A DNA stretch of 64,000 nt from Candidatus Parcubacteria bacterium (GCA_963718875.1 OY970378.1:68396-132395); one strand, 5' to 3'; shown: positions 1 to 60,894, counted from the stretch's first letter. Notes: generated by a model from the sequence alone, not told the origin. Numbers and translations: made by a program.

Positions 1-1650
1 GGCAATGTCCACCACTGGTTGTACCAAAATATACGAACCGGTGTCGTTTTTAAATTTGAGATCCACTTGTGGAGAGTAAATTGTGGCATCGACTCCTGGC
101 ACCCCAAAAGGAGCAATGTAGTAAGCAAGGGCGTAAGCGTGGTTTACGCGCTCAACAATTGGAAGCCCAGCCAACAGTGCCGCTCGATAAACAGTTGAGG
201 AAACTTGGCAAAGCCCTCCCCCGTATTCGGGTTGGATCTTATTGCCTACAATGGCTAGCCCCGGTCGAAAGCCATTGGCTGCATCAACATTTCCCAAATA
301 CTCATTGAAGGAAAAGATTTCATTCGGCTTGATGATAATTTGACTGTACTTATTGCTCCCTACCGTTATATTGGTAATTCTGTCGGCGGTGGAATGTGGA
401 AAATATGATATGCCTTCGGAAATTAGTTCCTTTATCCCTAGACTAGCCAAATTGTTTTCCGTAACGTCGGGCTGAGTAACTTTAACAGCTAGCGTTAACT
501 CACGGTCATAAGCTGATTTTGTTAAAGCAGTTTTTATTGATGCAACTGTGGCCAGCTGATCAAGTGATTGGCCTGGACGGCTTGGCTGCACCACAATCAA
601 CTGGTTGTTTTGCATCGCGAGCAAAGCATTTTTTCCAGCTTGATCGATCTTGGCCGCAAGACCCGCGACGTATTTGGTGACGGCAGCATCATTAAGCGAC
701 ATTTTTACCTCAGCGGGACCAGCATAGTAGTCGGCAATATTGTGGCTAGTTTCAAAGGTTTTGGAGTTGGGTCGCGAAAGTTTAATCCATGACACGATTT
801 GGTCCTGACTGACCGTAATGGTCTCTGTGGGTGTATCGAGTTTTAACGGACCAGACACATAGGTAGAGGCCTGGGCTTTGGCGGATTGAAGACTGGGGGC
901 ATCTATGGACGGAGCTACATCTGACACTGGAGCATCGATAGCTTCTAGGCTAGCACTCTCTAAGCGGTTTTTTACTTGCATTACAAAAGACCCAATATCC
1001 AATCGCTTCCCTGGATTATCAGCGGTAACAGTGACGCTGTTGCCACTGAAATTAAGGCTAGCGTCTGAGACGGCGCTAAATGTACTGCTATCAATTTGTT
1101 GGACAAAAGGAGTCAAAGCATCATCACTAAACTCTACATTTGACACATTGGTCGATCGGCCTAAAAGCGCCAAAATGTAATCTTTGGCCTGCTTCCAGGT
1201 GGAACCGCGTCGACCAACTTGTAACCCTTGGTCAACTGCTGCTGCCACATCATATTTAACATCTAGCTTAGAAGGGCTAAGCTGCAAGCTTGTGCCAGCG
1301 TAATTGACAGGAATCAGACTGCCTGAAAATTCATCGACGTGCTGTTGAACAGCGGCTATGGCGCTGTTTCGGTCCAAGCCGGCGATTTTGGCACCATTCA
1401 CTGCCACTCCCGGCAAACCCTTGCCACTGTAAACAAATATTATGACTAGCGCTAGCCCAACAACCAGTAAGACACTCCAACCGGCCAACCGCCAGGGCAA
1501 AGGAAGCCTTTTTGACCTGGGCTCTAGGTTCCAGTCTTCGGGTCGGCTATTATCGGGAGTGAAAACAATTGGGGTAGACCCGGCAGTAGGTTCGGACGCG
1601 ATGGCAGGCTCAGCAGGTATATTAAAGGAATGTTTTTTAGTCTTTGTCAT
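1..1650 (-). CDS. VanW domain-containing cell-wall protein (YoaR-like), 3' end beyond window start
   Basis: My own minus-strand translation from ATG at 1648-1650 gives one open frame to position 1, absent from the ORF track because it has no stop in the window. N-terminal TM anchor (LAGWSVLLVVGLALVIIFVY), then motif PGLAIVGNKIQPEYGGGLCQVSSTVYRAALLAGLPIVERVNHAY typical of VanW domains. The + strand ORFs 69-1657 in the track are antisense artifacts. Confidence 0.7.
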   Translation of the reverse strand, partial: MTKTKKHSFNIPAEPAIASEPTAGSTPIVFTPDNSRPEDWNLEPRSKRLPLPWRLAGWSVLLVVGLALVIIFVYSGKGLPGVAVNGAKIAGLDRNSAIAAVQQHVDEFSGSLIPVNYAGTSLQLSPSKLDVKYDVAAAVDQGLQVGRRGSTWKQAKDYILALLGRSTNVSNVEFSDDALTPFVQQIDSSTFSAVSDASLNFSGNSVTVTADNPGKRLDIGSFVMQVKNRLESASLEAIDAPVSDVAPSIDAPSLQSAKAQASTYVSGPLKLDTPTETITVSQDQIVSWIKLSRPNSKTFETSHNIADYYAGPAEVKMSLNDAAVTKYVAGLAAKIDQAGKNALLAMQNNQLIVVQPSRPGQSLDQLATVASIKTALTKSAYDRELTLAVKVTQPDVTENNLASLGIKELISEGISYFPHSTADRITNITVGSNKYSQIIIKPNEIFSFNEYLGNVDAANGFRPGLAIVGNKIQPEYGGGLCQVSSTVYRAALLAGLPIVERVNHAYALAYYIAPFGVPGVDATIYSPQVDLKFKNDTGSYILVQPVVDIA

Positions 1651-2352: not shown

Positions 2353-4385
2353 AATACCAGCTTACAACCTTGGCAAATTTCGACGGCAGAACCTCCGCTC
2401 CTCGTTTAAAGAAATTGCGTTGGCTCACTCCCCTGTTAGTAGCCTTTGGTGTGGCTGTAGCTCTGAGTGGTCAGGCTTCGGCTTACTCCAACTCTAGACT
2501 GATGGACGACCAGGTTTTTGATAATGTCGGTTCATTGAATGCTGCCCAAGTGGCGGATTTTTTAGCGGCTAGAACGGGTCCTTTTACTAAGTTATCGGGG
2601 CCTTCGCCTTGTTTGTCTGGTCACTCAAATATTAATTTTCATTGGGACAATGTTAAGTGGCACTATGGCAGTGATGCAGACTGGAATACGGCTTGGGGGC
2701 CTGCCCAGATTGCGGCTTCAGACATAATATATAAGGCTGCTCAAATGTGGGGCATTAACCCACAAGTTTTAATTGCTACTTTGCAAAAAGAACAAAGCCT
2801 GATTACCGGGACATCTTGCGATGGTTGGCGTTACAATTCCGCCATGGGGTACGGATGTCCCGACTCTGGCGGATGTAACCCAAAATACGCTGGTTTTAGC
2901 AAACAAGTACTGTGGGGGGCATGGCAACTTAAATTTAATAAAGAGCGTAGCTACGGCAACACCACGTGGGATGGAGACGACGTAATTACGTATGTTGGGT
3001 ATATGACCCAAGGCACGCGTAAACGTTGCGGGACCTGTACGGCTAATTATTATGACGGTTACGCCACGATTGATGGTCAGACGTTTTATTTGGAAAACGG
3101 CACCACTGCGTCTCTCTATACATACACACCTCACCTTGGACAAAGCTTTCCCGGTATTTTTCAGGGTTGGTTTGGCCCAACCATACTGCCAACGCATGCG
3201 TGGAACTTTGCGGGCCAGACTAGCACAAAAGACCTAAACGGCATCATAGTGGGGCAAACAGCAACATTATCGGTGTCGGCCGTAAATGCTGGTAATACCA
3301 CTTGGACCAATAGTGGGGCTAACCCGGTCCGGCTTGGAGCAAGCCAGCCCAGAGATCGTAAAAGTCTTTTTGCCACCTCCGGTTGGATTGCGCCCACCCG
3401 ACCCGCCAACCTAGATCAAGCTTCGGTAGCGCCGGGTCAAACCGGGACTTTCACTTTTACTATCCAGGCGCCGGCGGCTCCGGGTGACTACAAAGAATAC
3501 TTTAATCTTCTGGCTGAGGGAGTTACTTGGATGAATGATCCGGGAGTTTACTTTACTATTCGCGTTGCCCCTATTACATATACATGGTCTTTGGCAGGAC
3601 AAGCTGCCTACTCTGATTCGGGCAAGACAACTGGGATTGATTTGGCCGCGTTTTCTCCTGGGCAAAGTGGCTGGCTGGTTCTCAAAGCTAAAAATACCGG
3701 AAATGTTATTTGGAGTAATTCTGGTGCTAATCCCATTAGAGTAGGAACCGAGGCGAACAAGGACAGGCGAAGTTTGTTTAACACTGGTGGCTGGTTGGCC
3801 CCACATCGCCCCAGTAACATGGTGGAGTCCAGTGTAGCTCCAGGTGCGATTGGAACTTTTGAATTCCCTATCACAGCTCCTGCTAACGGTGGCACATATT
3901 TTGAGCGGTTTAATGTCTTGGCTGAGGGTATTACTTGGATGAATGACCTTGGTTTATATTATTACATCAAGGTAAACTCGGGTTACTCATGGACTCTAAC
4001 AAGCCAATACGCCTATGCAGACAGCTCTAAAACTGCAGGGGCTAATTTGGCTGCACTTTCACCAGGCCAAACAGTCTTTATAGGCTTGACAGCCAAAAAT
4101 ACCGGTACAGCTACTTGGTTTAATTCGGGCCCATATCCAATGGATTTGGCGACTTCGCGCCCGATTGATCGGATCAGTAAATTCCAGGCAGTTGGATGGT
4201 TGGCTCCTCAGCGACCGGCGCGGATGAAGGAAGCCTTTGTGGCTTCAGGGCAAACAGCCACATTCGAGTTCAATTATACGGCCCCAGCCCAAGTCGGCAC
4301 TTATTTTGAGTATTTTAACCCCGTAGCCGAAGCCATTACCCATTTGAACGACATTGGGATGTACTTCTACACCGTCGTTCAATAA
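2349..4385 (+). CDS. secreted protein: N-terminal possible lysozyme-like region plus three tandem ~115-aa repeats
   Basis: Signal peptide/TM at residues ~25-45. Three consecutive repeats share NTGNxxWxNSGANPxRLG ... R(K/R)SLF ... GW(I/L)AP.RP ... SVAPG..GTF.F ... AP...G.Y.E.FN.LAEG(V/I)TWMND.G.Y. The QKEQSLITG stretch is weakly reminiscent of lysozyme-like folds. Confidence 0.55.
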   Translation: MKYQLTTLANFDGRTSAPRLKKLRWLTPLLVAFGVAVALSGQASAYSNSRLMDDQVFDNVGSLNAAQVADFLAARTGPFTKLSGPSPCLSGHSNINFHWDNVKWHYGSDADWNTAWGPAQIAASDIIYKAAQMWGINPQVLIATLQKEQSLITGTSCDGWRYNSAMGYGCPDSGGCNPKYAGFSKQVLWGAWQLKFNKERSYGNTTWDGDDVITYVGYMTQGTRKRCGTCTANYYDGYATIDGQTFYLENGTTASLYTYTPHLGQSFPGIFQGWFGPTILPTHAWNFAGQTSTKDLNGIIVGQTATLSVSAVNAGNTTWTNSGANPVRLGASQPRDRKSLFATSGWIAPTRPANLDQASVAPGQTGTFTFTIQAPAAPGDYKEYFNLLAEGVTWMNDPGVYFTIRVAPITYTWSLAGQAAYSDSGKTTGIDLAAFSPGQSGWLVLKAKNTGNVIWSNSGANPIRVGTEANKDRRSLFNTGGWLAPHRPSNMVESSVAPGAIGTFEFPITAPANGGTYFERFNVLAEGITWMNDLGLYYYIKVNSGYSWTLTSQYAYADSSKTAGANLAALSPGQTVFIGLTAKNTGTATWFNSGPYPMDLATSRPIDRISKFQAVGWLAPQRPARMKEAFVASGQTATFEFNYTAPAQVGTYFEYFNPVAEAITHLNDIGMYFYTVVQ

Positions 4386-4461
4386 GCTTGCTTCGACACA
4401 ACGAAGGTTATCAGGCACGGTCAAATCTGTTATGATAATGCTACTAAGCTAAAGGAACTTT

Positions 4462-6212
<1,751 letters not shown>

Positions 6213-6216
<4 letters not shown>

Positions 6217-7460
6217 AACAACCAATTATTGAAATCAAGAACCTTAGCAAAGTTTACACTATTAGCCATGAGCAGCAGTCGTCCGGCAATGCCACTTTTC
6301 GTGACGCCCTGGTAAAGCTAGCTAAAAAACCGATTGAACTAGTGGCGGGTCATCGTCAAGAAAAAGAAAAGTTTCATGCTTTGCAAAACGTCAGCGCCGA
6401 TATTCAAAAAGGGGATGTAGTAGGCCTCATTGGCAAGAATGGCTCGGGTAAGTCCACTTTGTTAAAAATTTTGTCGCGGATTGTGGAGCCAACCGAAGGG
6501 GAAATTATCATGCGAGGCAAGTCTGCTAGCTTACTTGAAGTTGGCACCGGCTTTCATCCAGAATTAACTGGCCGTGAGAACATTTTCTTTAACGGGGCGA
6601 TTTTGGGCATGAGCCGGCGTGAAATTAAGAGCAAGTTTAATGAAATTGTGACTTTTTCAGGTGTAGAAAAGTTTCTCGATACTCCAGTTAAGTTTTATTC
6701 ATCGGGAATGTATGTACGTTTGGCTTTTGCCGTAGCTGCCCATTTGGAGCCTGATATTTTGATGGTTGATGAGGTGCTGGCAGTTGGCGACGCTGAGTTC
6801 CAGAAAAAAAGCCTTGGCAAAATGCGTGACGTCACTAGTAACCACGACCGCACGGTTATATTTGTGAGCCATAATATGGATGCTATCCAGAGCGTTTGTA
6901 ATAAATGTATTTGGCTGGCGGGTGGTGAAGTGGTTGAATTCGGTAATACCGATGATGTTGTCAGAAACTACATGGCGCTAGTGGGCCCACAAAACCAAAT
7001 GCCAATTGCGGAGCGCAAAGACCGCAAAGGCAGTGGTCGTGTTCGGATAACAAAAATTGTTATCGATGACGCGATTGGTAAAAATCGTAGCCTAAAGCTT
7101 GATATTGAACTCAATAATAAGACTGTTGAGATTTATGATGATTTTAAGCTTTCACTGGATTTATACGATAGCCTTGGAAACCACATCAGCAATTTGTACA
7201 ACAATACGATCGAAAAGAGACTCAACCTGAGACCGGGTATAAATCGTGCAAAACTAACCATTCACAACTTTAACCTTGTGCCGGGTACGTATAGCTTCAA
7301 CGCATTTGCAGCGTCTGATCATCACAACACTGAAATTTTTGACTGGATTGATGATGCCACATCATTTGTTGTTCCAGCCTATGATTACTATAAAACGGGC
7401 ACTGTTCCGACCTTCCGTGGGAAATTTGTTTTTATGGATTTTGACTATGCCATTGAATGA
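6213..7460 (+). CDS. wzt: polysaccharide export ABC transporter ATP-binding protein (Wzt/TagH family) with C-terminal extra domain
   Basis: Walker A GKNGSGKST, ABC signature YSSGMYVRLAF, Walker B ILMVDEVLAVGD. A ~170-aa C-terminal extension resembles Wzt-type glycan-terminus-binding domains. Confidence 0.8.
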
Positions 7461-8151
7461 TATAGCAAAAAAATTCAAACACCGCTTAGTAGGCGCGCCG
7501 GCCGATCCATTTGGCTTGACTTCATATTCTCAAGAAGGCGAGGATATGGTTTTGCGCCGGTTTGTCGGCGATAAGCTTAATGGGTTCTATGTCGATATCG
7601 GGGCTCACCACCCTAAGAGGTTTTCTAATACCTATTACTTTTATAAGCTGGGCTGGAGGGGGATAAATGTTGATGCAGACCCACTACTTATTAAGGAATT
7701 TGATAGCACCCGCCCAGATGATATAAATATTGCTTGTGGAGTTGGCAACTCAAATGAAGAGCTTACTTTTTATGTGTTTGATGAGCCTGCCATAAACACC
7801 TTTGATAGTGCTTTAGCTCAGGAAAGAGTTGCAAAGCATGGATACAGAATTGTTCGAGAAGAGAAAATTGCAATAAAAAAATTAGACTTAATTCTTAATG
7901 AATTTTTACCAACAGGACAAAAAATTGATTTTATGTCAGTTGATGTTGAAGGTAAAGATCTTGAAGTATTAAAATCAAATAATTGGTTAAAATACCGTCC
8001 TAGGTTTTTATTAGTAGAGTGCCTTGATACGAGCAGTTTAGAAAAAGTGTTGGTAGATGGGGTGACAAGCTATCTTAAGGGCGTGGGTTACAAACCAATA
8101 GCTAAATCATTATTTACAGTCTTTTTCGCAGATACGGAAAATCCAGCGTGA
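7447..8151 (+). CDS. FkbM-family SAM-dependent methyltransferase
   Basis: ORF 7276-8151; probable start ATG 7447 (MPLNDIAKKF) overlapping the wzt stop. Motif FYVDIGAHHPKRFSNTYYFYKLGWRGINVDADP fits the FkbM methyltransferase family. Confidence 0.6.
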   Translation: MPLNDIAKKFKHRLVGAPADPFGLTSYSQEGEDMVLRRFVGDKLNGFYVDIGAHHPKRFSNTYYFYKLGWRGINVDADPLLIKEFDSTRPDDINIACGVGNSNEELTFYVFDEPAINTFDSALAQERVAKHGYRIVREEKIAIKKLDLILNEFLPTGQKIDFMSVDVEGKDLEVLKSNNWLKYRPRFLLVECLDTSSLEKVLVDGVTSYLKGVGYKPIAKSLFTVFFADTENPA

Positions 8152-23879: not shown

Positions 23880-24017
23880 TTAGGCAGAAAGGACTTTGCG
23901 TCCTTTAAGACGGCGGCGCTTGAGCACGTTTCGACCCACGCGCGTAGCCATGCGACTCATAAATCCGTGCACTCTTTGGCGGCGGCGTTTTTTTGGTTGG
24001 TAGGTTTGCTTTGACAT
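23880..24017 (-). CDS. rpmH: 50S ribosomal protein L34
   Basis: Not in the ORF track (45 aa). My minus-strand translation: [45 protein letters not shown]. Confidence 0.9.
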
Positions 24018-24134: not shown

Positions 24135-24395
24135 TTACTCGTACAGTTGCGAGTGCGTTCCGACAGCTACTAAGATGATGGTGTCGGGAGCCGATTGTAA
24201 AAAATGAACTCTCAAATCACCGCCGGCACTGATGGAGAACTGGGGATAATATTTGCCCTTGAGTTGATGAAGCCGCAACTGTGAGTTGGTAGAGTCTTTG
24301 ATAAATAACTCGATACTTGTGTTGACGCGCTGCTGCTTTCGCAAAGGCAGTTTTACCCATTGTTTGATGTAATTGCGATGGAGATCAATCTGCAT
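24135..24395 (-). CDS. RelE/YafQ-family type II toxin (mRNA interferase)
   Basis: 86 aa with GDLRVHF...IILVAVGTHSQLY C-terminus typical of RelE/YafQ; overlaps the antitoxin gene by 11 nt. Confidence 0.6.
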   Translation of the reverse strand: MQIDLHRNYIKQWVKLPLRKQQRVNTSIELFIKDSTNSQLRLHQLKGKYYPQFSISAGGDLRVHFLQSAPDTIILVAVGTHSQLYE

Positions 24396-24672
24396 GCGGT
24401 AACGACTTGAGGTAGGCCAGAGCCTGTTTGGCGGGCATGGGGCCCGTCAAATTGCGGCCAGCACGAACGTCGCTCTCTACTCCGTCTAGTTGTTTGGCAA
24501 ATGCAGCATTTGGTACTAGTGCTTCAGTGAACTCGACTGTTCGTTCAGCTAAAACCTTGCGGGCCTGGTTGTTCAAAATTGCGCTCATACTGAGGCCGAC
24601 GCTTTCGGCAAAATCCTGCAACTCTTCTTTAATTTTTGGATCCATTTTGATTGATACGACTACGTTTTTCAT
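24385..24672 (-). CDS. RelB/DinJ-family antitoxin
   Basis: 95 aa, MDPKIKEELQDFAESVGLSMSAILN ribbon-helix-helix N-terminus typical of DinJ/RelB. Confidence 0.6.
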   Translation of the reverse strand: MKNVVVSIKMDPKIKEELQDFAESVGLSMSAILNNQARKVLAERTVEFTEALVPNAAFAKQLDGVESDVRAGRNLTGPMPAKQALAYLKSLPHAD

Positions 24673-24839: not shown

Positions 24840-25073
24840 GGTTTTTCGAAAATCTTCTCCACCGCCGGAGTGGACTTTTCCACCGTTTTCTCAGATAGAC
24901 CACAGTTTTGCACAGCTTTTTTGGTCTAAAAAAGCATTAATTTTAACGTTGTGGAAAAACATCATGGTGGTTATGATTATTACATTAGGTTTTTGAGAAG
25001 TGTGAACGAATATTTTTTAGAAGTTTTATTCTAAAATGCGTTTGTTTGTGAACTCATTGCCCTACTAACAAAG
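24840..25073. promoter_or_regulatory. dnaA upstream region with DnaA-box-like motifs (candidate oriC portion / dnaA promoter)
   Basis: TTCTCCACC (~24866), TTTTCCACC (~24885) and TGTGGAAAA (~24951) match TTWTCCACA in 6-8 of 9 positions; the surrounding tract is AT-rich. Confidence 0.4.
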
Positions 25074-26462
25074 GTGGTGAAAGTGGAAAAAAGGGGTTTG
25101 TGGCAGGCTGTGCTTGGCGAATTAGAGCTAACGATTAGCAAAGCTAATTTTGGTACATGGTTTAACCACACAGCAATATTGTCTAATGAAGATGGCCATG
25201 TAGTTATTGGTGTCCCCAATATTTTTACCAAGATTCGACTGCAAGATAAGTACCATGGTGCCATCAAAGACACTTTGGCGCGCATGACACCGGTGAAATC
25301 GATTGAATATAAGCTCACGCCCACCTCAAGCACCACTATTACCTCAAATCCGTTTGTGATTGAAGCCGCGCCAATCTCATCTCCCTCTGAATCTGTACCT
25401 ACGACCAAGGCTGTTACTGCAATGTCCGCTCCATCTACCACTACGCTTAACCCTAAATACACTTTTGACTCCTTTGTGGTAGGTTCAAGTAACGAGCTGG
25501 CCTATGCCGCCTGTATGGCGGTAGCAAAGAGCCCCGGAGCCAAATATAACCCCCTCTATATTTATGGAGGTGTCGGCCTGGGCAAGACGCACTTAATGCA
25601 GGCTGTGGGAAACGAGGTTTTACGGGCCGACCCGACAAAGAAGATTGTTTACATCACAACTGAGGGTTTTACCAATGAGTTTGTTGACAGTATTCGCAAC
25701 AAAAAACCCCAGGGCTTTACCAACAAGTTCCGGGGCGTGGATGTCTTAATCATTGACGACATGCAGTTTTTGGGAACCAAAGAAAAGACTCAGGAAGCTT
25801 TTTTCCATACTTTCAACGCGCTGCACCAAGCTGGCAAACAAGTAATTATTTCCAGCGACAAACCGCCCAAAGCCATTCCCTCACTCGAGGAACGCTTGCG
25901 ATCACGTTTTGAATCGGGCATGATGGCCGACATTCAGCCGCCCGATCTTGAAACCAGAGCAGCCATTTTGCAAAGCAAGGCCAGCGCTCAGGGCGTAATG
26001 TTGCCGCCGGAGGTGATCGAGTACCTGTCGCGCAATATCAAGCAAAATGTGCGCGAACTAGAAGGGGCATTAACTCAGCTGGTAGCGCACTGTGAGTTTT
26101 TGGGAGTGGACCCAAGCATTGCCACTGTTACGGGCATATTAGGCAATATTGCCATGGCTAAGCCGAAGCTAAAAACTTTATCGGCGCGGTTGGTAATTGA
26201 GCGCGCGGCTGGTTATTACGACTTATCGATTGATGACATTACAGGGCCAAAGCGCGATAAGGAGATTGTGCTAGCTAGACAAGTGGCAATGTATTTAATG
26301 CGCCATGAAATGAGCTTGAGTTTCCCCAAGATTGCTAAGGCAGTCGGCGGACGTGATCACACCACTGCCATGCACTCAGTGCAGAAGATTGAAAAATTGG
26401 TGGAAATTGATGAAATGCTGCGAAGTGAAATCAATGCTGTGCGCGAACGGCTATTTGTCTAG
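25074..26462 (+). CDS. dnaA: chromosomal replication initiator protein DnaA
   Basis: AAA+ Walker A GGVGLGKTHL, Walker B LIIDDMQFL, C-terminal DNA-binding domain; probable non-ATG (GTG) start. Confidence 0.95.
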   Translation: MVKVEKRGLWQAVLGELELTISKANFGTWFNHTAILSNEDGHVVIGVPNIFTKIRLQDKYHGAIKDTLARMTPVKSIEYKLTPTSSTTITSNPFVIEAAPISSPSESVPTTKAVTAMSAPSTTTLNPKYTFDSFVVGSSNELAYAACMAVAKSPGAKYNPLYIYGGVGLGKTHLMQAVGNEVLRADPTKKIVYITTEGFTNEFVDSIRNKKPQGFTNKFRGVDVLIIDDMQFLGTKEKTQEAFFHTFNALHQAGKQVIISSDKPPKAIPSLEERLRSRFESGMMADIQPPDLETRAAILQSKASAQGVMLPPEVIEYLSRNIKQNVRELEGALTQLVAHCEFLGVDPSIATVTGILGNIAMAKPKLKTLSARLVIERAAGYYDLSIDDITGPKRDKEIVLARQVAMYLMRHEMSLSFPKIAKAVGGRDHTTAMHSVQKIEKLVEIDEMLRSEINAVRERLFV

Positions 26463-26504
26463 GCTTTAGATGTGCCCTCACGAGGAGGCTCCTTCTTTTA
26501 GCGG

Positions 26505-26533
26505 TCTATTGCACGGGTGCCTCCCGTGCAATA
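26505..26533 (+). terminator. hairpin downstream of dnaA
   Basis: ATTGCACGGG-TGCCTC-CCGTGCAAT, a perfect 10-bp inverted repeat, followed by ATTTCC (weak U-tract). Confidence 0.35.
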
Positions 26534-26624
26534 TTTCCAAACCAACCATCTTTTTGTGATTACCTTGGAAACTCCTCCATCGCCGCCACGTTAATGAGGA
26601 CGATGGAGGGTAGAACCGCGGCCG

Positions 26625-27056
26625 CTAGTTGCCGCCGAGCTCGATGCACTGGCCGCCGGAAAGTTGTCGAAGACGATCGCGGACGTCGTCGGGGTAAACG
26701 CCGAACTCCTGCGACAGCTCAAACACCCTTCGGCTATAGATCTCCCTCCAGGTTCCGTCGGCTCGGCGATAAGAGGAAACCAAATAGCAATCAAGGCATT
26801 CTCGCTCGGGTGTATTGCGATGAGGTTTGGTCGCATCTTTGCTCGCAGTCGTGCACGAGCGAAGTCTCTCAAAGCGCCAGTCCGGCAACAGATAAAAAGC
26901 GGCAGCCCATAGCTGGTTTGCACTTTCCCATTCGGGAGTTTGGACGAGGCACCTCGCGCAGATTACGCCAGTGGGGCTGGTTTTGATCTGTACGAAGACT
27001 GCAAACTCGCCTTTACATTGCGAGCAACTAAGGCGGCGTTCGGTGAATTGTTGCAC
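26625..27056 (-). CDS. hypothetical protein inside the high-GC insert, Cys-rich (CxxC...CxxC)
   Basis: 143 aa ORF in the ~60% GC segment 26470-27790 between dnaA and dnaN; no recognisable family. Confidence 0.35.
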   Translation of the reverse strand: MQQFTERRLSCSQCKGEFAVFVQIKTSPTGVICARCLVQTPEWESANQLWAAAFYLLPDWRFERLRSCTTASKDATKPHRNTPERECLDCYLVSSYRRADGTWREIYSRRVFELSQEFGVYPDDVRDRLRQLSGGQCIELGGN

Positions 27057-27207
27057 GTACGGTCCTTTCCGGTAGACGGATGCGTATCGCGATGTGAAGA
27101 GCTAGCCGAACTCATTCGACCCCCAAGTTGGCAAAGTTTGTAAACTTAGGGGTCGGCCCCGCCGCTGCCGGTTAGGGCAAACGGCGGGGCCAAAACAACA
27201 GTTGCAT

Positions 27208-27771
27208 CTAGGGGCGGAAGGCGTTGACGGCAAAGATGGTGCCCGGCTGCCACTCGGTCTCATCGGCCACGGTGAGCAGACCGAGGTGCCGCACCTCGTC
27301 GCTGTCGCTGCCGACGTGTCCCACCCAGACATTGGGGACGCTCCAGACGCCCTTACGTACCTTCTTGGTGAGGCGAAGACCGACCGTCACCCTCATGGCA
27401 CGACCTTCGAGCTGTGCGATGGGATCGCAGGGAAAGTCAGGGTGTTGAGCCAGGGCCGCCAGGACGCGAGGTCCAGAGGGCAAAAGGGTGTCTCGACCTC
27501 TCTCGAACATCAGGCTGGCCTGGATCTCGGCCGTGGTTGCCCAGTCGTCGAGCTCGTAGAGCATGACTGTACCGGAGTACCCATGCCCCTCGAACTCGTC
27601 GCTGTAGGCGGGGTCGGCAAGGAGGGCGGCGTTGATAGTGAGGTAGTCGCTGGCGGATTGTGCCAACGAAACGCCACTAGGGACGTCGACTCGTACCTGA
27701 CGGATGTCTCCGGATTTCCAAAGACGCTTCATGATGGTCCCTTCGGGGTTTGGGGCAGGTGCCCGGTACAA
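27208..27771 (-). CDS. hypothetical protein inside the high-GC insert
   Basis: 187 aa ORF, same orientation as 26625-27056; a GC-rich hairpin (GGCCCCGCC...GGCGGGGCC, ~27150-27190) lies immediately downstream. Confidence 0.4.
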   Translation of the reverse strand: MYRAPAPNPEGTIMKRLWKSGDIRQVRVDVPSGVSLAQSASDYLTINAALLADPAYSDEFEGHGYSGTVMLYELDDWATTAEIQASLMFERGRDTLLPSGPRVLAALAQHPDFPCDPIAQLEGRAMRVTVGLRLTKKVRKGVWSVPNVWVGHVGSDSDEVRHLGLLTVADETEWQPGTIFAVNAFRP

Positions 27772-27963
27772 CAGCTTTTGAAGAACGTCCTGAGCACAAA
27801 AAACAGTAAATATTGGGTGATGCGATCAGTTGGTTATAGATATTACACTATGAATCATAATTTGTCAAGTATTGAAAGGTTATTTTTTCTTTATATCTGT
27901 TAATTTATAAAATAACTCGGATAAATTGACGTATATATGAATAAATGATAATATTTAATTGTT

Positions 27964-28515
27964 ATGGCTAGACCAGCAACCACAATTCACTTTTTAATGA
28001 CGGGTGGGACGATTGATTCGGAATATAACGGCCGGCAAGACTTAATATTGCCCAACAGCAAGTCGGTGATTCCCGAATTTATTCGCGGGTTGAGGCTCAA
28101 GCAAGGTGCCAAGTTTAATGTGGTGTGTATGAAAGACAGCCGCGAGATAGATAAAATTGATCGGCAAATGTTGCTTAACGCTATTGAGGTTAGCCCGTAC
28201 CGAAAAATTATTGTGACGCATGGACTTTATACTATTACCGAAACTGCGCGCTATCTGGCAAAAAATCTTAAGCGCCGTGACCAAGCCGTTATTTTGGTGG
28301 GGTCGCTCTTGCCTATTCGAGGGTTTGCCCCATCAGACGGACCTTTCAACCTCGGCGTTTGCGTAGCCGAAATACGCCATCTTAAAAAAGGCGTACTTGT
28401 GGCCAATGGTAACCACTTGGTGGACGCCTATGATGAAATGGAGTTGGCGCAAACAGTGTTTTTGAGCTCGCCTTTTTCAGAAAAACCTATTGCTTCAAGC
28501 TCAGCCCAGAGCTAA
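27964..28515 (+). CDS. L-asparaginase N-terminal-domain protein (truncated asparaginase/GatD-like)
   Basis: HFLMTGGTIDS matches the asparaginase TGGTIAG threonine motif; 183 aa is about half a full asparaginase. Preceded by a very AT-rich tract (27800-27960). Confidence 0.5.
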   Translation: MARPATTIHFLMTGGTIDSEYNGRQDLILPNSKSVIPEFIRGLRLKQGAKFNVVCMKDSREIDKIDRQMLLNAIEVSPYRKIIVTHGLYTITETARYLAKNLKRRDQAVILVGSLLPIRGFAPSDGPFNLGVCVAEIRHLKKGVLVANGNHLVDAYDEMELAQTVFLSSPFSEKPIASSSAQS

Positions 28516-28873
28516 ACCTTAAATTAGGGTTTTTAAAACCTGTGGTAATGCGACAAAACAGATTGCGTCCATGTATACTTTGGTAAGTAACTGGTAGTTT
28601 TGGAATGGTGGAAATAGTTCGGGAAAGGATGTGGGAAAAGATGATATTTCCCCAGTTTTGCATAAGCGCTTTGATAACTCATCCACAAGCACCAACACTT
28701 TACCCCACTCCCGCCCGCGGTTATCATGCTTATGTTCACAGTTTTATTTAAAGTATTATAACTTCACAAAGGCTTTTATAATGGTTATGCCCAGTGTCCC
28801 CAACCACTATAATTATGCTTACTGTCTTAAAGTCATCCTATAATAAACTAATAAGAAAGAGATAAGGGGATAA

Positions 28874-29986
28874 GTGAAAGCTAGCGTTACACAAGAAAAC
28901 TTGAATAAAGCCCTCGGTCTAGTTGGTAGAATAGTTAGTTCACGTAGTAGTTTGCCCGTACTGGGAAACATTCTCCTTAGTACTGACAAAAATCGTTTAA
29001 AGCTAGCGGCTACCAATCTTGAAGTTGGAATAAACTATTGGGTGGGTGGAAAAATTGAGCAAGAAGGGGCAATAACCGTACCTGCGAGGTTGGTGTCTGA
29101 GTTTGTGGCGAGTCTTCCAAGTGGGACAATTGAGCTAGATGCTAATGAATCAGGTGTGACCGTTAAAACCAATCATTATCAATCGCATATTAACGGAATA
29201 TCAGCCGATGAATTTCCGCTTATTCCGCAGATTAAGAACAAGCCAGTGTTAACACTCTCGGCTGAACAGTTTCGAGATGCCTTGCAACAAGTGGTTGTGG
29301 CTGCGTCAGCTGACGAGTCGCGTCCCGTACTTGCCGGCGTTTACATGTTTGTGGAAGACAAAAATTTGTTTTTGGTTGCCACAGATAGCTACAGGTTGGC
29401 TGAACGAACCTTAGCTTTAAAAGAAAACCCAGCTGAAAAACTAGAAGTAATAGTGCCTGCTCGTACCATGCAAGAGCTAGCTAGGATTTTGGCCGAGGCA
29501 GAGTCTGAATTGTCGATATATGTGGCGGATAATCAAATAATGTTTGAAGTCGATAGTGTTGAGCTGACGTCTCGTTTAATTGATGGCCAATTTCCTAACT
29601 ACAGGCAAATTATTCCGGCCAAAACCGAAACGGCAATTGAAATTGATACCGCCGAGTTTAGTCGTATTACTAAAGTGGCGAGTTTGTTTGCGAGGGAGAA
29701 TGCTGGTGGTGTTAAGCTTGAAATAAAACAAGGCGGACAAGTAAGTATTGTGTCGGCGGCTTCGCAATTGGGCGATAATGTTTCTACGGCTGATTGCGTT
29801 ACCATTGGTCCCGACGGTGAAATTTCGCTTAATACGCGCTACTTAGCTGATGCGTTGGCGGTTATAAAAACGCCTCAAGTGGAGTTTGCCACCAGCGGCA
29901 AACTGTCGGCTTGTATGTTACGGCCAATTGATGACAAGGGTAAAACTACCAACTACCTGCATATTATTATGCCGCTGCGAACTTAG
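28874..29986 (+). CDS. dnaN: DNA polymerase III subunit beta (sliding clamp)
   Basis: 370 aa, GTG start; three-domain clamp signature (LLSTDKNRLKLAATNLEV..., VVVAASADESRPVLAGV...). Confidence 0.9.
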   Translation: MKASVTQENLNKALGLVGRIVSSRSSLPVLGNILLSTDKNRLKLAATNLEVGINYWVGGKIEQEGAITVPARLVSEFVASLPSGTIELDANESGVTVKTNHYQSHINGISADEFPLIPQIKNKPVLTLSAEQFRDALQQVVVAASADESRPVLAGVYMFVEDKNLFLVATDSYRLAERTLALKENPAEKLEVIVPARTMQELARILAEAESELSIYVADNQIMFEVDSVELTSRLIDGQFPNYRQIIPAKTETAIEIDTAEFSRITKVASLFARENAGGVKLEIKQGGQVSIVSAASQLGDNVSTADCVTIGPDGEISLNTRYLADALAVIKTPQVEFATSGKLSACMLRPIDDKGKTTNYLHIIMPLRT

Positions 29987-30029: not shown

Positions 30030-31106
30030 GTGGCACTAACCTCTCTTAACTTGGTTAACTTTCGCTCTTATCGCGATGAATCTTTTGAATTTGGTAACGG
30101 GGTCACTTTGGTGGTGGGGCCAAACGCTAGTGGAAAAACCAACTTACTCGAAAGCCTATATGTGCTGGCTTCAACCAAGTCGTTTCGGACTCGCGATCCA
30201 GGGTTGGTTTGTCATAATCAAGATTATTTTCGGATTGTCGGACACTTTCAAGATGATGAAGTGACACTATCGTATGGGCTTCAAAACGGACGCTCTACGA
30301 AACACGCCAGTCGCAACGGAGCAAAGCAAAGCTTAGTGTCGCATGTTGGTAGTGTGCAAGTGACATTGTTTGAGCCCACTGACCTCGAGCTTACTAGTGG
30401 TGCGCCTGAGCGACGTCGGCGCTATATAGATTTTATACTTTGCCAAACCAACCGCGCCTATTTAACGACCTTGAGTCAATATCGAAAGGTGTTACGTCAG
30501 CGCAATAGCCTGCTTAGTAGTTTTGATACATCCCGTATAAAAGACGAGATTTTTGCTTGGGACGTCAAGTTGACAGAGCTAGCAAATGAGATTTATAGTC
30601 GTCGGCTGGAATTTTTAAACTATCTAAACCAAGTGGCTCCTGATTTATACTACGACGTGTCGGGCGAACTAGTTAAAATTAAGTTTGAGTATCAGCCTAG
30701 TGTGGGCGCCAGCGATTATGCAGGTAATTTTTTAGAGGAGCTAGCCAGGCGGCTGACAATCGATTTGGCGGCTGGGTTTACAACTATTGGGTCACATCGA
30801 GAAGACTTTAGGGTCACGTTTAAAAGTAATGACATTAACTCAGTGGCTTCAAGAGGAGAAAACCGCAGTGTAGTGCTAGTAATGAAACTAGCTGAGCTAG
30901 CTTACAACGAGGAGCGCAGCGGCATAAAACCAATTCTTTTACTGGACGATGTTTTTAGCGAGCTAGATATCAACCGGCGCAAGTATTTGGTTAAAAAAGT
31001 TAGTGACCACCAAACCATTATCACGACTACAGAGGCCGAGGCTATCAAAGACATTATGGGTGACTACCATCTTATATCTACTGAGGACAGTTATGCTCGG
31101 CAGTAA
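30030..31106 (+). CDS. recF: DNA replication and repair protein RecF
   Basis: GTG start; Walker A GPNASGKTNLLESL and Walker B LLLDDVFSELD. Confidence 0.9.
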   Translation: MALTSLNLVNFRSYRDESFEFGNGVTLVVGPNASGKTNLLESLYVLASTKSFRTRDPGLVCHNQDYFRIVGHFQDDEVTLSYGLQNGRSTKHASRNGAKQSLVSHVGSVQVTLFEPTDLELTSGAPERRRRYIDFILCQTNRAYLTTLSQYRKVLRQRNSLLSSFDTSRIKDEIFAWDVKLTELANEIYSRRLEFLNYLNQVAPDLYYDVSGELVKIKFEYQPSVGASDYAGNFLEELARRLTIDLAAGFTTIGSHREDFRVTFKSNDINSVASRGENRSVVLVMKLAELAYNEERSGIKPILLLDDVFSELDINRRKYLVKKVSDHQTIITTTEAEAIKDIMGDYHLISTEDSYARQ

Positions 31107-50944: not shown

Positions 50945-51020
50945 GCGCTCGTAGCTCAGTGGATAGAGCATCAGCTTGCGGTGCTGGGGGTCGGAGGTTC
51001 GAGTCCTCCCGGGCGCACCA
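50945..51020 (+). tRNA. tRNA-Arg (anticodon read as GCG)
   Basis: Hand-folded cloverleaf: acceptor GCGCUCG/CGGGCGC (one G-U), U8 A9, D-stem GCUC/GAGC, anticodon stem UCAGC/GCUGG with loop UUGCGGU (U33, G37), T-arm GGAGG-UUCGAGU-CCUCC, discriminator A, encoded CCA. Confidence 0.7.
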
Positions 51021-51290: not shown

Positions 51291-52376
51291 ATGGAATTTA
51301 TACCAGGATTGCAGTTAAGCGAACTCTTTTACAAAGAGGCAGTTCTGCCGATTCTGGAGGCGAGCTTCCCCCACTTAGCCCATGGGGCTGGGCTTATAGG
51401 TGAGGGGTCGGAGGTGCTCGGGTTTGATGACGAACGTTCAATGGATCACGATTGGGGTCCCAGATGTCAGATTTTTCTGAGCCCTGATGATCACAAGAAG
51501 TTGGCTAGCCAAATCACAGAAGTACTTGGTAAGGAGCTCCCCCGTGATTTTCGCGGGTTTCCTACCCGTTTTAGCGTTTATGAAGATACGGGCGCAAAGC
51601 TTCTGGATCGTAGTGAAAGCGGGCCGGTGACGCACAGAGTTGAAATCGAAAGCATCCCGGAGTTTTTTGGCGGGTATCTGGCATTGGATGTTGATAAAGC
51701 AATGTCTGTCTACGACTGGTTGACCACACCAGAGGAACTCCTGCTTATTGTCACTTCCGGCAAAGTTTTTTCCGACCCTCTCGGCGGACTCCAGCAGATC
51801 CGACAAAAATACTCGTACTATCCGGAGGAGGTGTGGCTGTATTTGCTCGCCTCACAGTGGCGCATAATCAGCCAAGAGGAAGCATTTATTGGTCGCACTG
51901 CGGCGGCAGGGGACGATTTGGGCTCTCGAATATTGACGGCCAAGATGGCTGGCTATTTGATGAAGCTGGCATTTCTAATGGAGAAGAAGTATGCCCCATA
52001 CAGCAAGTGGTTCGGTAAGGCATTTAGTCAGCTTGAAGCTGCAAAGCTGCTGGCTAGCCCTTTGAAATCGGCCCTTGATGCATCTGAATATTCTGAGCGT
52101 GAAGGCTACTTGTCAGAAGCTTATGAAATTGTCGCAGGTATGCATAACCAGCTTGGCATCACAGACGCCATTGACCCAACAGTTCGCTCGCATTACTACG
52201 ATCGACCCTATAAGGTCATCAAGGCCGATAGATTTGTCGATGCCATTGCGAACAAGCTTAAAGGCACTGAGCTAGCCGAGATAGCGGGCATAGGTTCCGT
52301 TGATCAGTTTGTTGCCAACGTTGACCTATTGACCCATCCTGAGCTTTGCCACAGGCTATCTGCTCTATATCTTTAA
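51291..52376 (+). CDS. nucleotidyltransferase-fold protein with DUF4037-like C-terminal region (island cargo)
   Basis: 361 aa; N-terminal GLIGEGSEVLGFDDERSMDHDWGPR resembles the GS...D.D motif of polymerase-beta-type nucleotidyltransferases. Sits between repeat E and repeat F, which are directly fused in the third copy. Confidence 0.4.
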   Translation: MEFIPGLQLSELFYKEAVLPILEASFPHLAHGAGLIGEGSEVLGFDDERSMDHDWGPRCQIFLSPDDHKKLASQITEVLGKELPRDFRGFPTRFSVYEDTGAKLLDRSESGPVTHRVEIESIPEFFGGYLALDVDKAMSVYDWLTTPEELLLIVTSGKVFSDPLGGLQQIRQKYSYYPEEVWLYLLASQWRIISQEEAFIGRTAAAGDDLGSRILTAKMAGYLMKLAFLMEKKYAPYSKWFGKAFSQLEAAKLLASPLKSALDASEYSEREGYLSEAYEIVAGMHNQLGITDAIDPTVRSHYYDRPYKVIKADRFVDAIANKLKGTELAEIAGIGSVDQFVANVDLLTHPELCHRLSALYL

Positions 52377-52693: not shown

Positions 52694-53341
52694 TTAGGCG
52701 AAGAGACTGTATATGACCGGCTTCTCGGCTCTATGATAAGACACGAATAATCTATCGGAACACAGATTGCCCCAGGACAATACCGACGCCAGGATTTCGG
52801 CTGGCGTCCAACGGTAGGTTACGAACGATGTATCACTTACGGCCGTTGATACGCTCGTTTCCATATGGGAGGTTTGCGGATCAAAGCCCGGGATGAGGGG
52901 CTCATAGGTGAAAATGAGGCTTCCTTTGGAGTTTAGGTGTTTCCCGACCTGCAGTAGCACCTGGGGGAGATCAGGGATAAACTCCAGACTTCCAATGGCC
53001 ACCACAAGGTCAAACAGGCGCGCATCCCTCGCGAGGAACTGCACAAGGTCTTCGGCATGAGTCTCGGCTGAGGGGAACTTCGCCGCAGCTATGTCGATCA
53101 TTGCTGGGGAAATATCCACAGCCACCAAAGTCTGGAGATCTGGATATAGCTCGCATATCTGGCTAAGAGTCTGTCCGGTGCCGCAGCCCAAGTCGAGCGC
53201 CGTCGAAGCTCTGACCGCGCTGGCTAAGAGTTCCTCGCCCAGGACACTGTTTGGTATCCACGCACCATCACCCGTTGCTGCGTCATATAGCGGGGCTAAC
53301 CCATTCCAGTATTTTGCTGTACTCTTATTCAGGTCCACCAT
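52694..53341 (-). CDS. class I SAM-dependent methyltransferase
   Basis: ALDLGCGTGQTLSQI motif I and DLVVAIGSLEFIPD; high-GC gene. Confidence 0.7.
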   Translation of the reverse strand: MVDLNKSTAKYWNGLAPLYDAATGDGAWIPNSVLGEELLASAVRASTALDLGCGTGQTLSQICELYPDLQTLVAVDISPAMIDIAAAKFPSAETHAEDLVQFLARDARLFDLVVAIGSLEFIPDLPQVLLQVGKHLNSKGSLIFTYEPLIPGFDPQTSHMETSVSTAVSDTSFVTYRWTPAEILASVLSWGNLCSDRLFVSYHRAEKPVIYSLFA

Positions 53342-53607
53342 TTAATCCGATTATATACTACGAATAAGGTGGCACTAATTTCGCAAAAGAACAAGTTGCA
53401 GCAGTCGAATCGAGCAAGAGAAATGACGCTAACCAAGCCTACTTTCTCTTTCCCTTATGCTTGGTCAATTGAGCTCAATGTCATATAATGTTGTTTCGGG
53501 TTGACCGGATTGGTTCTTATCCGAATCTGATTTACTTCTGCTTAGCGCTCTGATGAGCCCAGTGCGCTGAGCTTGGGAAGTACCTGAGCCGGCATGGAGG
53601 CAATCCC

Positions 53608-54006
53608 GTGACAATCGGTATCTTCGAAGACGTCCTGCCGGCAGGATGGTCGTCCGATGTTGGCAATCCACCACAGCTCGGCGACGTCATCATGAGCATG
53701 CAGAGCAACCGGTCATTTCCAATCCCCATGCTTCTCGAGGTCACCGATCCATCGGGCATGCTGCCGCCGGAAGAGAGCGTCTACCTTCCGGTGCGTGCGA
53801 CCTCGATCCGCACGGTCTACCCGCAGGGCTGGGACGAGCCCGAGTACGAGGTCGTGGGGTACGTGACTCGCACCAGATCGGAGCGGGAGATCACCTGGGT
53901 TCGGATCGATCTTCGTACGAACGGCGATACCACCATCAAGGAAGCGACGGCGTATCTCCTTGGCCCAGGGGAAGAGATCGGGCTCGATCAGACCATCAGG
54001 AACTGA
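53608..54006 (+). CDS. hypothetical protein (island)
   Basis: 132 aa; preceded by promoter box TATGCTTGGTCA-N17-TATAAT (53455-53492) and followed by hairpin element A (54060-54110). The overlapping Arg-rich 53646-54110 frame is rejected. Confidence 0.45.
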   Translation: MTIGIFEDVLPAGWSSDVGNPPQLGDVIMSMQSNRSFPIPMLLEVTDPSGMLPPEESVYLPVRATSIRTVYPQGWDEPEYEVVGYVTRTRSEREITWVRIDLRTNGDTTIKEATAYLLGPGEEIGLDQTIRN

Positions 54007-54059
54007 GCAAGATTCGGGAGGGCCCCGAGCGGCCGACATCGCCGCGCATCATTGCAAAG

Positions 54060-54110
54060 GCAGGGAACTGGGGTTCGCGCCCCAGTTCCCTGCCCCACTT
54101 TTATGACTAG
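54060..54110 (+). repeat. hairpin element A, copy 1 (GGAACTGGGG-TTCGCG-CCCCAGTTCC + CTGCCCCACTTTTATGACTA)
   Basis: 10-bp GC-rich perfect stem; copies at ~56350-56397 and ~61808-61856, each directly after an ORF stop. Confidence 0.75.
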
Positions 54111-54232
54111 ATACATTGTTAAATAGTCGTTTATGCTTGGCATTAATTCATTTTGGTATTAATATATTCCTACGTTTCAATACGGACCAAACAGCCAACC
54201 TTGGCTAACGTGTTGAACGGTGAGGAGAGTGC

Positions 54233-54568
54233 ATGACAACTGGCGTTTTGACGGATGACGACATCAACGGCAGGCGCAGGATGATTCGTCTCGAACTGCT
54301 CAGTCGCGGCCAAGTCGGCGTGGTTGGTGCGGGGGGCATGGTTCCGATGCAGGAGCTGACTCCCTACGAGCTGCACGAGCACATCGGCAACGTCGGATGG
54401 GAACTCGAAGGCTTGACTCGGACCGACTGGATCAACCTCAGCGCGGCCGAACAGGAGGCCTTCCTGCACAGCATGGACAACCTGGAGAGGTTGCTCGACG
54501 CCGATCCCGAGGCGAGCGTCCCCACGGCACTCGAACTCGGTATCGATCCCAACTTCCTTCTGAACTAG
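54233..54568 (+). CDS. hypothetical protein (island)
   Basis: 111 aa, ~60% GC; upstream TTGGCA-N17-TAATAT box at ~54137-54165; followed by hairpin element B at 54603-54661. Confidence 0.45.
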   Translation: MTTGVLTDDDINGRRRMIRLELLSRGQVGVVGAGGMVPMQELTPYELHEHIGNVGWELEGLTRTDWINLSAAEQEAFLHSMDNLERLLDADPEASVPTALELGIDPNFLLN

Positions 54569-54602
54569 CCCCATCGGCGACGACGCCGAGCTCACCCCCC
54601 GT

Positions 54603-54661: not shown

Positions 54662-54735
54662 CAACCTGTTAAACCCCGCCTGAACCTTTGCGCTCATGCT
54701 TGCCTAATTGAGTTCATATCAGTATTAGTATCTTA

Positions 54736-55144: not shown

Positions 55145-55192
55145 TCTGGACTCGCTACCGCGTCGTACTCCTGACGGCGGAAGAGCTGGCGG

Positions 55193-60889: not shown

Positions 60890-60894
60890 TCTCA

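Follow-up and report, generated by a model that had tools for sequence, protein, structure and literature searches.

In the 64-kb stretch of DNA analyzed here (OY970378.1; hereafter the window, with coordinates counted from its start), which belongs to a small genome of the Saccharimonadia (candidate phyla radiation, CPR/Patescibacteria), the genes dnaA and dnaN are separated by a gap that holds a two-gene module, ORF174-ORF143 (ORF, open reading frame), and a short asparaginase-domain gene, asnN. We read this gap, with moderate confidence and as a structural and evolutionary description, as an accessory-gene hot spot carrying a hypervariable, lineage-restricted two-gene operon together with an ordinary asnN. 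The two protein families are new, while the kind of feature is already known. The insertion sequence IS6110 prefers the dnaA-dnaN region of Mycobacterium tuberculosis, and, as at that and other accessory hot spots among core genes, a compact gene pair has here been broken repeatedly by varied accessory DNA in related genomes. Unlike IS6110-type hot spots, the window shows no insertion sequence, integrase, or target duplication, and the cargo is an orphan operon equipped with its own predicted promoter and set in a conserved scaffold.

Other described systems share part of this architecture. Phage morons, embedded among unrelated genes, are transcribed as single units from a promoter of their own to their own terminator and differ from their surroundings in composition; the module likewise combines its own predicted sigma-70 promoter, predicted stem-loop terminators, and a deviant GC content with no role evident from the context. 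However, it lies outside a prophage, comprises two genes and a structured spacer, and has an orthologous, divergent copy in a related chromosome. Hypervariable loci kept by recombination in their flanks, such as immunity and specificity genes and capsule and O-antigen loci, are comparable in their conserved flanks, in the contrast of 27% (ORF174) against 73% (AsnN) protein identity, and in a sharp mosaic junction within the module, whereas the module proteins are cytoplasmic orphans without a recognizable toxin, immunity, restriction-modification, or surface domain, and three alleles are represented. Finally, a bipartite oriC flanks dnaA in Bacillus subtilis (incAB/incC) and Helicobacter pylori. 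Similarly, among 27-28 relatives of the window, no k-mers are shared more widely than box-like motifs, both upstream of dnaA and upstream of dnaN; in contrast, the inserted genes have widened the distance between the two predicted sets in the window from about 1.7 kb to 3.7 kb.

Organization of the dnaA-dnaN Gap

The features of the gap and of the genes that delimit it are as follows:

25074-26462, plus strand: dnaA, with Pfam domains DnaA_N, Bac_DnaA (5.8e-70), and Bac_DnaA_C
26507-26533, plus strand: perfect 11-bp stem-loop after dnaA (TATTGCACGGG / CCCGTGCAATA, inverted repeat I9), probably the dnaA terminator
26578-26610, minus strand: 9-bp stem-loop after ORF143 (CCTCCATCG ... CGATGGAGG), 15 nt past the ORF143 stop codon, a probable terminator of the operon at what is probably the left boundary of the GC-rich block
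26625-27056, minus strand: ORF143, 143 aa, GTG start, eight Cys
27116-27191, minus strand: twin abutting GC-rich stem-loops between ORF174 and ORF143
27208-27732, minus strand: ORF174, 174 aa from the ATG at 27732, with its product on record (P0001)
27733-27839, minus strand: 5' untranslated region (5'UTR) of ORF174-ORF143, about 100 nt, GC-rich
27868-27840, minus strand: predicted operon promoter, sigma-70-type TTGACA-17-TAATAT
27796-27963: AT-rich promoter region between the module and asnN, about 25% GC
27926-27954, plus strand: predicted asnN promoter, TTGACG-17-TAATAT, from the promoter scan
27964-28515, plus strand: asnN, 183 aa, PF00710 (4.9e-16) over residues 8-157
28516-28873: dnaN-upstream spacer, with GTGGAAA at 28608, TCATCCACA at 28679-28687, and an AT-rich end
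28874-29986, plus strand: dnaN, with three DNA_pol3_beta domains in Pfam
30030-31106, plus strand: recF, placed by tblastn synteny, with Pfam SMC_N/AAA on the same gene in a contig of the Logan assembly described below

The separation of dnaA and dnaN by about 2.4 kb, as stated in the initial annotation, was borne out by the Pfam-identified genes, which lie 2411 bp apart. The recorded start of dnaA probably lies not at 25074 but at the GTG at 25083, for a product of 459 aa: the exact 459-aa form of the product is present in the records, the 462-aa form is absent, and AGGTGG precedes this GTG. In 200-bp windows, the GC content rises from about 48% to 55-64% across about 26560 to about 27795, drops to 25.5% at 27800-27999, and then runs at 41-49% over asnN and the dnaN-upstream spacer. 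The block at 26501-27790 (1290 bp) has 58.7% GC against a mean of 47.2% (sd 3.9, z = 2.95, all windows of the same size in the 64 kb); such a GC content is reached by 0.05% of 1290-bp windows, and the 64-kb maximum falls at this block. Its dinucleotide relative-abundance distance to the backbone is 151, compared with 65 +/- 20 (maximum 114) for backbone pieces of equal size, so the block has the atypical composition of a genomic island by both GC content and dinucleotide distance. The first stretch after dnaA (26463-26560) is of backbone composition and contains the terminator-like hairpin. The initial annotation had placed a GC-rich block of alien composition at 26470-27790; the composition stood up to the sliding-window comparison, and the start was shifted to near 26560. 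The other elements that it had listed, namely two minus-strand ORFs (a Cys-rich one of 143 aa and one of 187 aa), GC-rich hairpins, an extremely AT-rich tract after the block, and an asparaginase-domain gene, are all present, the two ORFs at 26625-27056 and 27208-27771.

Both ORFs are genuine genes. The 187-aa version of the second one is counted from a TTG, and the ATG start yields the 174 aa of ORF174; this ATG and its ribosome-binding-site context align with those of L085, a 2052-bp metagenome contig from the National Center for Biotechnology Information (GCA_025491075.1, JAOQFB010027867.1) that carries P0006, the closest AsnN homologue. The GC contents of ORF174 by codon position are 0.66/0.46/0.75 in its own frame, a pattern missing from the overlapping plus-strand ORFs, which, together with the recorded product, identifies it as a real, high-GC coding gene. 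The closest homologue of ORF143 is P0002, 88% identical and located on three small contigs of the European Nucleotide Archive (L001-L003). Between ORF143 and its L001 counterpart, 38 codons differ synonymously and 18 non-synonymously, nucleotide changes are distributed 15/10/45 over the three codon positions, and the non-synonymous divergence (dN) is 0.080 against a synonymous divergence (dS) of 0.661; the resulting ratio of 0.12 and the third-position excess indicate purifying selection and, therefore, a real gene. Its product is predicted to be cytoplasmic, with an N-terminal four-Cys zinc ribbon (C11, C14, C33, C36), a second CxxC (C87, C90), and a helical C-terminus, and the N-terminal CxxC...CxxC pattern is invariant in all four members of the family. 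ORF143, with its GTG start, gave no self-match in the protein collection, although its 88% identical homologue did; the gene callers applied to the source genome seem to have missed it or called it otherwise.

Predicted expression signals are consistent with a single transcription unit comprising ORF174 and ORF143. The TTGACA-17-TAATAT promoter is the best match in 26300-29000 (10/12) and is directed into ORF174, with both hexamers and their spacing identical in L085. Since a second predicted promoter faces asnN, the AT-rich tract is predicted to be a divergent promoter region. The spacer between ORF174 and ORF143, folded as 154 nt, has a minimum free energy of -70.6 kcal/mol (z = -5.9), and 28 pairs of the twin hairpin are kept across the window, L001, L002, and L085, four of them via compensatory changes. 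The fold of the 5'UTR was not significant (z = 0.6 and -1.1), and Rfam gave no match over 26400-28000 even at E <= 1. The module hairpins, as read from the sequence, have no U-tract. The twin hairpin may attenuate read-through as a partial terminator or stabilize the upstream mRNA, which would leave ORF174 in excess over ORF143. An 18-nt hairpin motif also occurs in 11 viral contigs, as chance matches inside coding sequence that form no hairpin.

Divergent Alleles in a Conserved Scaffold

The layout of the window is reproduced in L085, which carries, in order, a partial Zn-ribbon gene (minus strand), a GC-rich hairpin, an ORF174-like gene (minus strand), an AT-rich gap (28% GC), and asnN (plus strand). 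The ORF174-like gene (554-1069, minus strand, 171 aa) has 61% GC and a GC content at third codon positions (GC3) of 0.77, and its product is 27% identical to ORF174 (pairwise E 5e-7); the Zn-ribbon homologue is 26% identical to ORF143, and AsnN shares 73% identity with P0006. Global alignments of the corresponding segments of the window and L085, with shuffle controls, gave these values:

AT-rich promoter region: 76% identity, z 8.7
5'UTR: 70% identity, z 8.3
Inter-ORF hairpin region: 65% identity, z 7.5
asnN: 76% identity, z 142
ORF174 coding sequence: identity not meaningful, z 4.3
Zn-ribbon coding sequence: identity not meaningful, z -0.6

The two loci are orthologous, including the non-coding parts inside the GC-rich block, and both module proteins (about 26-27% identical to their L085 versions) diverge far more than their own regulatory DNA or AsnN. 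The module is thus older than the window genome or moves between relatives, and did not arrive by a single recent insertion. The initial annotation had named the same insert with native composition in related genomes as evidence that would speak against a foreign block; the same insert does occur in L085, and that copy is still GC-rich.

This pattern, in which regulatory DNA is better conserved than coding sequence and alleles with a GC3 of about 0.75 reside in genomes of about 47% GC, is unusual. Between the window and L085, the dN of ORF174 is 0.90, and asnN has a dN of 0.24 and a dS of 1.5 (saturated); the GC3 of both ORF174 alleles is 0.75-0.77, and that of asnN is 0.49-0.50. With synonymous divergence saturated, a vertically inherited gene would be expected near the genomic GC3 of about 0.5, as observed for asnN, whereas the ORF174 alleles stay at 0.75-0.77. 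Divergence in place is also insufficient as an explanation, because ORF143 is under ordinary constraint (0.12). From these alignments, the alleles look like old lineages, separately maintained or re-imported, in a conserved scaffold.

The three small contigs, on which 3' fragments of ORF174 precede ORF143, point to exchange within the module. Over the stretch that starts about 35 nt ahead of the ORF174 stop codon and takes in the hairpins and ORF143, L001 is identical to L002 and L003 at 629 of 633 positions; upstream of it the sequences diverge, and the encoded ORF174 C-termini differ ("...ADETEWLPGTIFAINNHRL" versus "...PPESVWKEGKNIFAINNHRL"). This boundary is a sharp mosaic recombination junction inside ORF174 and brings the alleles of this gene to at least three. 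The final 33 residues of ORF174 in the window are 88% identical in L001, and homology between the window and L001 stops exactly at the ORF143 stop codon. Past this point, L001 carries a second Zn-ribbon paralogue (676-873) with 36-41% identity across about 50 aa. Its start overlaps the preceding stop (ATGA), and the module can therefore exceed the length that it has in the window.

Accessory Genes between dnaA and dnaN in Relatives

The best DnaA relatives of the window are Saccharimonadia metagenome-assembled genomes with 47-62% identity. Their usual gene order is yidC-rnpA(-rpmH) / dnaA-dnaN-recF, and the dnaA-dnaN gap measures about 250-320 bp (about 270 bp), so that the spacing of 2411 bp is indeed abnormal for the clade, as had been proposed, in comparison with about 270 bp in most Saccharimonadia relatives. 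The gap is also enlarged in the three closest relatives by DnaA, of which L004 and L006 are the two closest:

L004: dnaA-dnaN gap of 850 bp, with a GIY-YIG gene at 6258-6536 (92 aa, 1.2e-11)
L005: dnaA-dnaN gap of 565 bp
L006: dnaA-dnaN gap of 870 bp, with a Clp_N-domain gene at 7446-8063 (minus strand, 205 aa, 2.1e-18)

Neither asnN nor the module occurs in the gap of these three genomes, and the sequence downstream of dnaA in the window is not alignable with theirs. The presence of differing accessory genes after dnaA in such close relatives indicates a recurrent landing site, which makes the space between dnaA and dnaN a hot spot for accessory genes in this Saccharimonadia subclade. The adjacency of dnaA and dnaN is a common anchor for genome orientation and oriC prediction; as the gap is a hot spot in one subclade, tools for origin prediction and genome annotation should allow for inserted genes at this position.

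Searches for Homologues and Known Classes of Elements

The ORF174 and ORF143 families are essentially without relatives in current databases. A word-indexed search of 5.8 billion clusters with ORF174 returned itself alone, and an exhaustive HMMER search of 1.84 billion representatives (of about 15 billion proteins) returned itself and two repeat-driven false positives; no match was obtained in Pfam, PHROGs, NCBIfam, PADLOC, or PDB. Its homologues are confined to L085 and the 3' fragments in L001-L003. For ORF143, P0002 was the only match in the word-indexed search, and Pfam, PHROGs, NCBIfam, and PADLOC gave nothing significant for it or for its relatives in L085 and L001, the only signal being sub-threshold zinc-ribbon matches. 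The search for relatives of both ORFs that the initial annotation had called for was thus productive for ORF143 (P0002, 88%), with ORF174 finding no database homologue beyond itself. Sequence and profile searches of PDB with either protein found nothing, as did protein and DNA BLAST of the module against phages and plasmids; viral contigs held no relatives of single proteins or family alignments, a metagenome scan queried with ORF143 gave no match, and a profile search with both families over every ORF of every fetched locus added no further members. The AlphaFold2 models were unusable, with predicted local distance difference test (pLDDT) values of 35.7 for ORF174 and 41.2 for ORF143. Nothing specific to this locus was found in the literature.

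The gap also lacks the hallmarks of mobile elements. No integrase, recombinase, or transposase was detected among the ORFs of 26463-28873 (Pfam, NCBIfam, PHROGs), repeats (direct or terminal inverted) were short and at chance level, with none that brackets the block, and no tRNA lies at the insertion site, the only tRNA gene of the window being at 50945. The gap ORFs had no PHROGs match that would place them in a prophage, and their neighbors are dnaA, asnN, and dnaN. Several known classes were considered and rejected. An integrative genomic island would fit the composition, but no integrase, repeats, or tRNA insertion accompanies the block. An integron cassette is contradicted by the lack of intI or a tyrosine recombinase and of GTTRRRY / RYYYAAC cores at the hairpin bases, which were read by eye without an attC model search. 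A diversity-generating retroelement was set aside since no second copy of 26463-28873 exists in the 64 kb and the allele differences are not position-restricted, reverse transcriptase not having been searched window-wide. A type II toxin-antitoxin pair is at odds with the structured spacer of 151 nt and with the lack of a toxin-antitoxin family match in Pfam or PADLOC, and a known anti-phage defense system with the lack of a PADLOC-DB 2.0 match for the alleles of the window, L085, or L001.

Composition links the block to other parts of the window. GC-rich patches at 53.3-62 kb reach 65% GC and contain small orphan ORFs with a GC3 of up to 0.79; they lie downstream of the following gene:

50945-51020: tRNA-Arg(GCG), upstream of a mosaic of GC-rich patches (53300-62000)

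The dinucleotide distance between the insert and these patches is 68-90, compared with 151 to the backbone, and no sequence similarity was found between the insert and the tRNA-Arg region. Ten ORFs scanned downstream of the tRNA gene comprised, as recognizable genes, a DUF4037 protein (51291-52376) and a methyltransferase (52694-53341), with no integrase among them, and the region gave no phage matches. The suggestion that the insert and a tRNA-Arg island had the same source is therefore left with the closeness of composition, as neither paralogy nor a nameable donor accompanies it.

Assembly Support for the Locus

The Logan short-read assembly of run ERR12037361 carries the exact proteins of the window (DnaA, ORF174). 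Its dnaA contig (5644 bp) ends about 130 bp past dnaA (about 26590), and its recF-dnaN-asnN-ORF174 contig (17,646 bp) ends just beyond ORF174 (about 27200), so the ORF143 segment between them is not bridged in this assembly. These contig ends could reflect an assembly graph that branches because the alleles are heterogeneous, or simply falling coverage.

Origin and Possible Role of the Module

The description that we favor is that of a hypervariable operon in a hot spot. With its predicted signals, the operon consists of the sigma-70 promoter, a 5'UTR of about 100 nt, ORF174, the twin hairpin, ORF143, and a terminator hairpin, and its conserved non-coding parts (promoter, 5'UTR, and twin hairpin) form a scaffold, common to the window and L085, around deeply divergent, GC3-rich coding alleles. 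These alleles would be swapped by homologous recombination in the conserved flanks, with one junction about 35 nt before the ORF174 stop codon, and may ultimately come from a GC-rich gene pool unsampled by public data. The module could belong to the conflict type (defense, immunity, or exclusion), its diversity being kept by frequency-dependent selection; this functional proposal is tentative and rather doubtful. ORF143 might be a nucleic-acid-binding partner or regulator, a suggestion made with low confidence. A bolder version, which we regard as highly unlikely, would see a fixed "expression socket" at the origin into which interchangeable high-GC ORFs, possibly host-derived, are placed by integrase-free cassette exchange in the course of symbiont-host or symbiont-phage conflict, the twin hairpin serving both as recombination boundary and as RNA element. 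If the pattern is general, the locus would offer a compact system in which to study the maintenance of variable, possibly conflict-related genes by ultra-small symbionts and the origin of foreign-looking composition.

Several points weigh against the favored description. The known orthologous loci amount to L085 (2 kb, from the partial Zn-ribbon gene to asnN) and three sub-kilobase fragments; simple vertical descent does not account for a GC3 that stays so high; an exchange of alleles requires a donor pool, and none was seen; and no family, structure, or defense-system match supports a function, with pLDDT values of 36 and 41. In addition, the join between dnaA and ORF143 (26463-26625, about 160 bp) is the sole junction that has no independent assembly support. 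Together with the unbridged ORF143 segment in the Logan contigs of ERR12037361, this raises the question of an assembly artefact, in which a foreign GC-rich fragment was stitched between dnaA and asnN. We consider such an artefact scarcely credible: ORF174, the AT tract, asnN, dnaN, and recF are contiguous in the independent Logan assembly; L001 and L085, both from other samples, carry the 3' end of ORF174, the twin hairpin, and ORF143 in one uninterrupted stretch; and L085 repeats the passage from the GC-rich block through the AT-rich tract to asnN, leaving only the 160-bp ORF143-dnaA join on its own.

Two biological alternatives address the composition directly. A recent horizontal insertion from a high-GC donor, such as an actinobacterial host of the epibiont or its phages, with a source shared with the tRNA-Arg patches, would account for the GC content (58.7% versus 47.2%), the ORF174 GC3 of 0.75, the dinucleotide distances (151 to the backbone, 68-90 to the patches at 53-62 kb), the lack of these genes at the same site in relatives, and the hairpins without a U-tract, which are common in high-GC bacteria. 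However, no homologue from a GC-rich organism appeared when the representatives that stand for about 15 billion proteins were searched, and phages, plasmids, and viral contigs held none either; the insert has no sequence similarity to the tRNA-Arg region, and its site no integrase, direct repeat, or tRNA; and the whole locus is common to L085, from which AsnN differs by 27%, so that any insertion must be old or repeated, not recent and unique. We therefore find this alternative unlikely; of the foreign insertion proposed in the initial annotation, the alien composition holds, and a reading as a recent arrival or mobile element does not, given the missing donor, integrase, and repeats and the module shared with L085. 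A native, fast-evolving locus whose GC and GC3 were raised by GC-biased gene conversion through frequent recombination would dispense with a donor, in keeping with the failure to find one, and would also fit the sharp mosaic junction between alleles, the concentration of the GC excess at third positions (0.75 versus 0.46 at second positions), and the high GC3 in two lineages despite saturated synonymous divergence of asnN. For such a process, however, a sharp-edged rise in GC3 of 25 points within about 1.2 kb is large, the non-coding spacer and 5'UTR in the block are GC-rich too, and the dinucleotide signature resembles that of the other GC-rich orphan patches, pointing to a shared outside pool. 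We judge gene conversion to be decidedly improbable as the explanation.

DnaA Boxes and the Replication Origin

With at most one mismatch allowed, the canonical box TTATCCACA occurs 14 times in the window against 14.5 expected, which is no enrichment. Relaxed motifs are more informative and define the strongest oriC box cluster of the window:

24856-25090: DnaA-box-like cluster upstream of dnaA and over its start, with 4 of the 10 TTnTCCACn sites of the 64 kb

Among 28 relatives, the 7-8-mers that recur most often upstream of dnaA are TTCCACAA, GTGGAAAA, and TATCCACA; ahead of dnaN, in 27 relatives, ATCCACA, CTGTGGA, and GTGGAAA are the most frequently shared 7-mers that are not simply AT-rich. 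By these motifs, DnaA boxes seem to flank dnaA on either side in this clade. In agreement with the earlier claim, box-like motifs were found in the window both upstream of dnaA and in 28516-28873, the downstream set being the weaker one (1-2 TTnTCCACn sites). The spacer at 28516-28873 shows a weak alignment to the ~250 bp that immediately precede dnaN in L004-L006; it is native to this position and a candidate for the downstream half of a bipartite oriC. On this evidence, our reading is that the inserted 2.05 kb would lie between dnaA and the dnaN-attached box and AT-rich spacer; as the hot spot is located between the dnaA 3' end and this spacer, the main upstream cluster would be untouched. 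Left of 24.7 kb, genes are encoded on the minus strand; the plus strand encodes dnaA, dnaN, and recF. The cumulative GC skew rises near-monotonically across the 64 kb with no sign change at dnaA, and hence does not mark the origin here; of the two mapping approaches proposed initially, box mapping yielded the cluster at 24856-25090 and GC skew was uninformative.

The asnN Gene and Neighboring Accessory Genes

The asnN gene matches only the N-terminal asparaginase domain, and scores for full-length NCBIfam models are far under the cut-off (40 versus 314). At 183 aa, it is short of a full-length asparaginase, which has a C-terminal domain and about 330-350 aa. Its homologues, however, number 122 and have about 170-180 aa, and those named by source come from Patescibacteria lineages; with a GC content of 0.466 and a GC3 of 0.49, the gene is of backbone composition. 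Far from being a remnant or truncated gene, it is an ordinary representative of a family of about 172 aa that is widespread in CPR, so the earlier description as half-size asparaginase is apt for the N-terminal domain, and any implication of a remnant is not. The TGGT motif is kept in the family (T13-G14-G15-T16 invariant in alignment A4). Canonical asparaginases have HGTDT as the second catalytic motif; the family has T-H-G-(T/L/N)-Y-(T/S) instead, and the window protein THGLYT. The replacement of HGTDT by HGLYT suggests that the classical asparaginase chemistry may be altered.

Among 80 loci of the Joint Genome Institute from a metagenome scan queried with AsnN, asnN frequently has toxin-antitoxin neighbors, and in none of them is it next to dnaA or dnaN or accompanied by the module. 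A GC-rich divergent neighbor of asnN is restricted to the three closest members (the window, L085, and L084). In L084, the region upstream of a 64%-identical asnN homologue (3900-5800) has 52-60% GC against about 43% and encodes an AAA_35/AAA_22 ATPase and a 102-aa orphan; the rest of this contig is dense in PIN, RHH, and MazE toxin-antitoxin genes.

On the other flank of dnaA, a YafQ-like toxin and RelB-like antitoxin pair lies between rpmH and the upstream box cluster:

23880-24017: rpmH, read from the ORF list
24135-24395, minus strand: YafQ-like toxin (Pfam YafQ_toxin 9.5e-05, below the gathering cut-off)
24385-24672, minus strand: RelB-like antitoxin (Pfam RelB 0.0033, below the gathering cut-off)

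This pair has no counterpart beside dnaA in relatives L004-L030, and the rnpA-dnaA distance is 1.27 kb in the window versus about 0.4 kb in relatives. With the toxin-antitoxin pair upstream and the module downstream, accessory modules have thus been gained on both flanks of dnaA.

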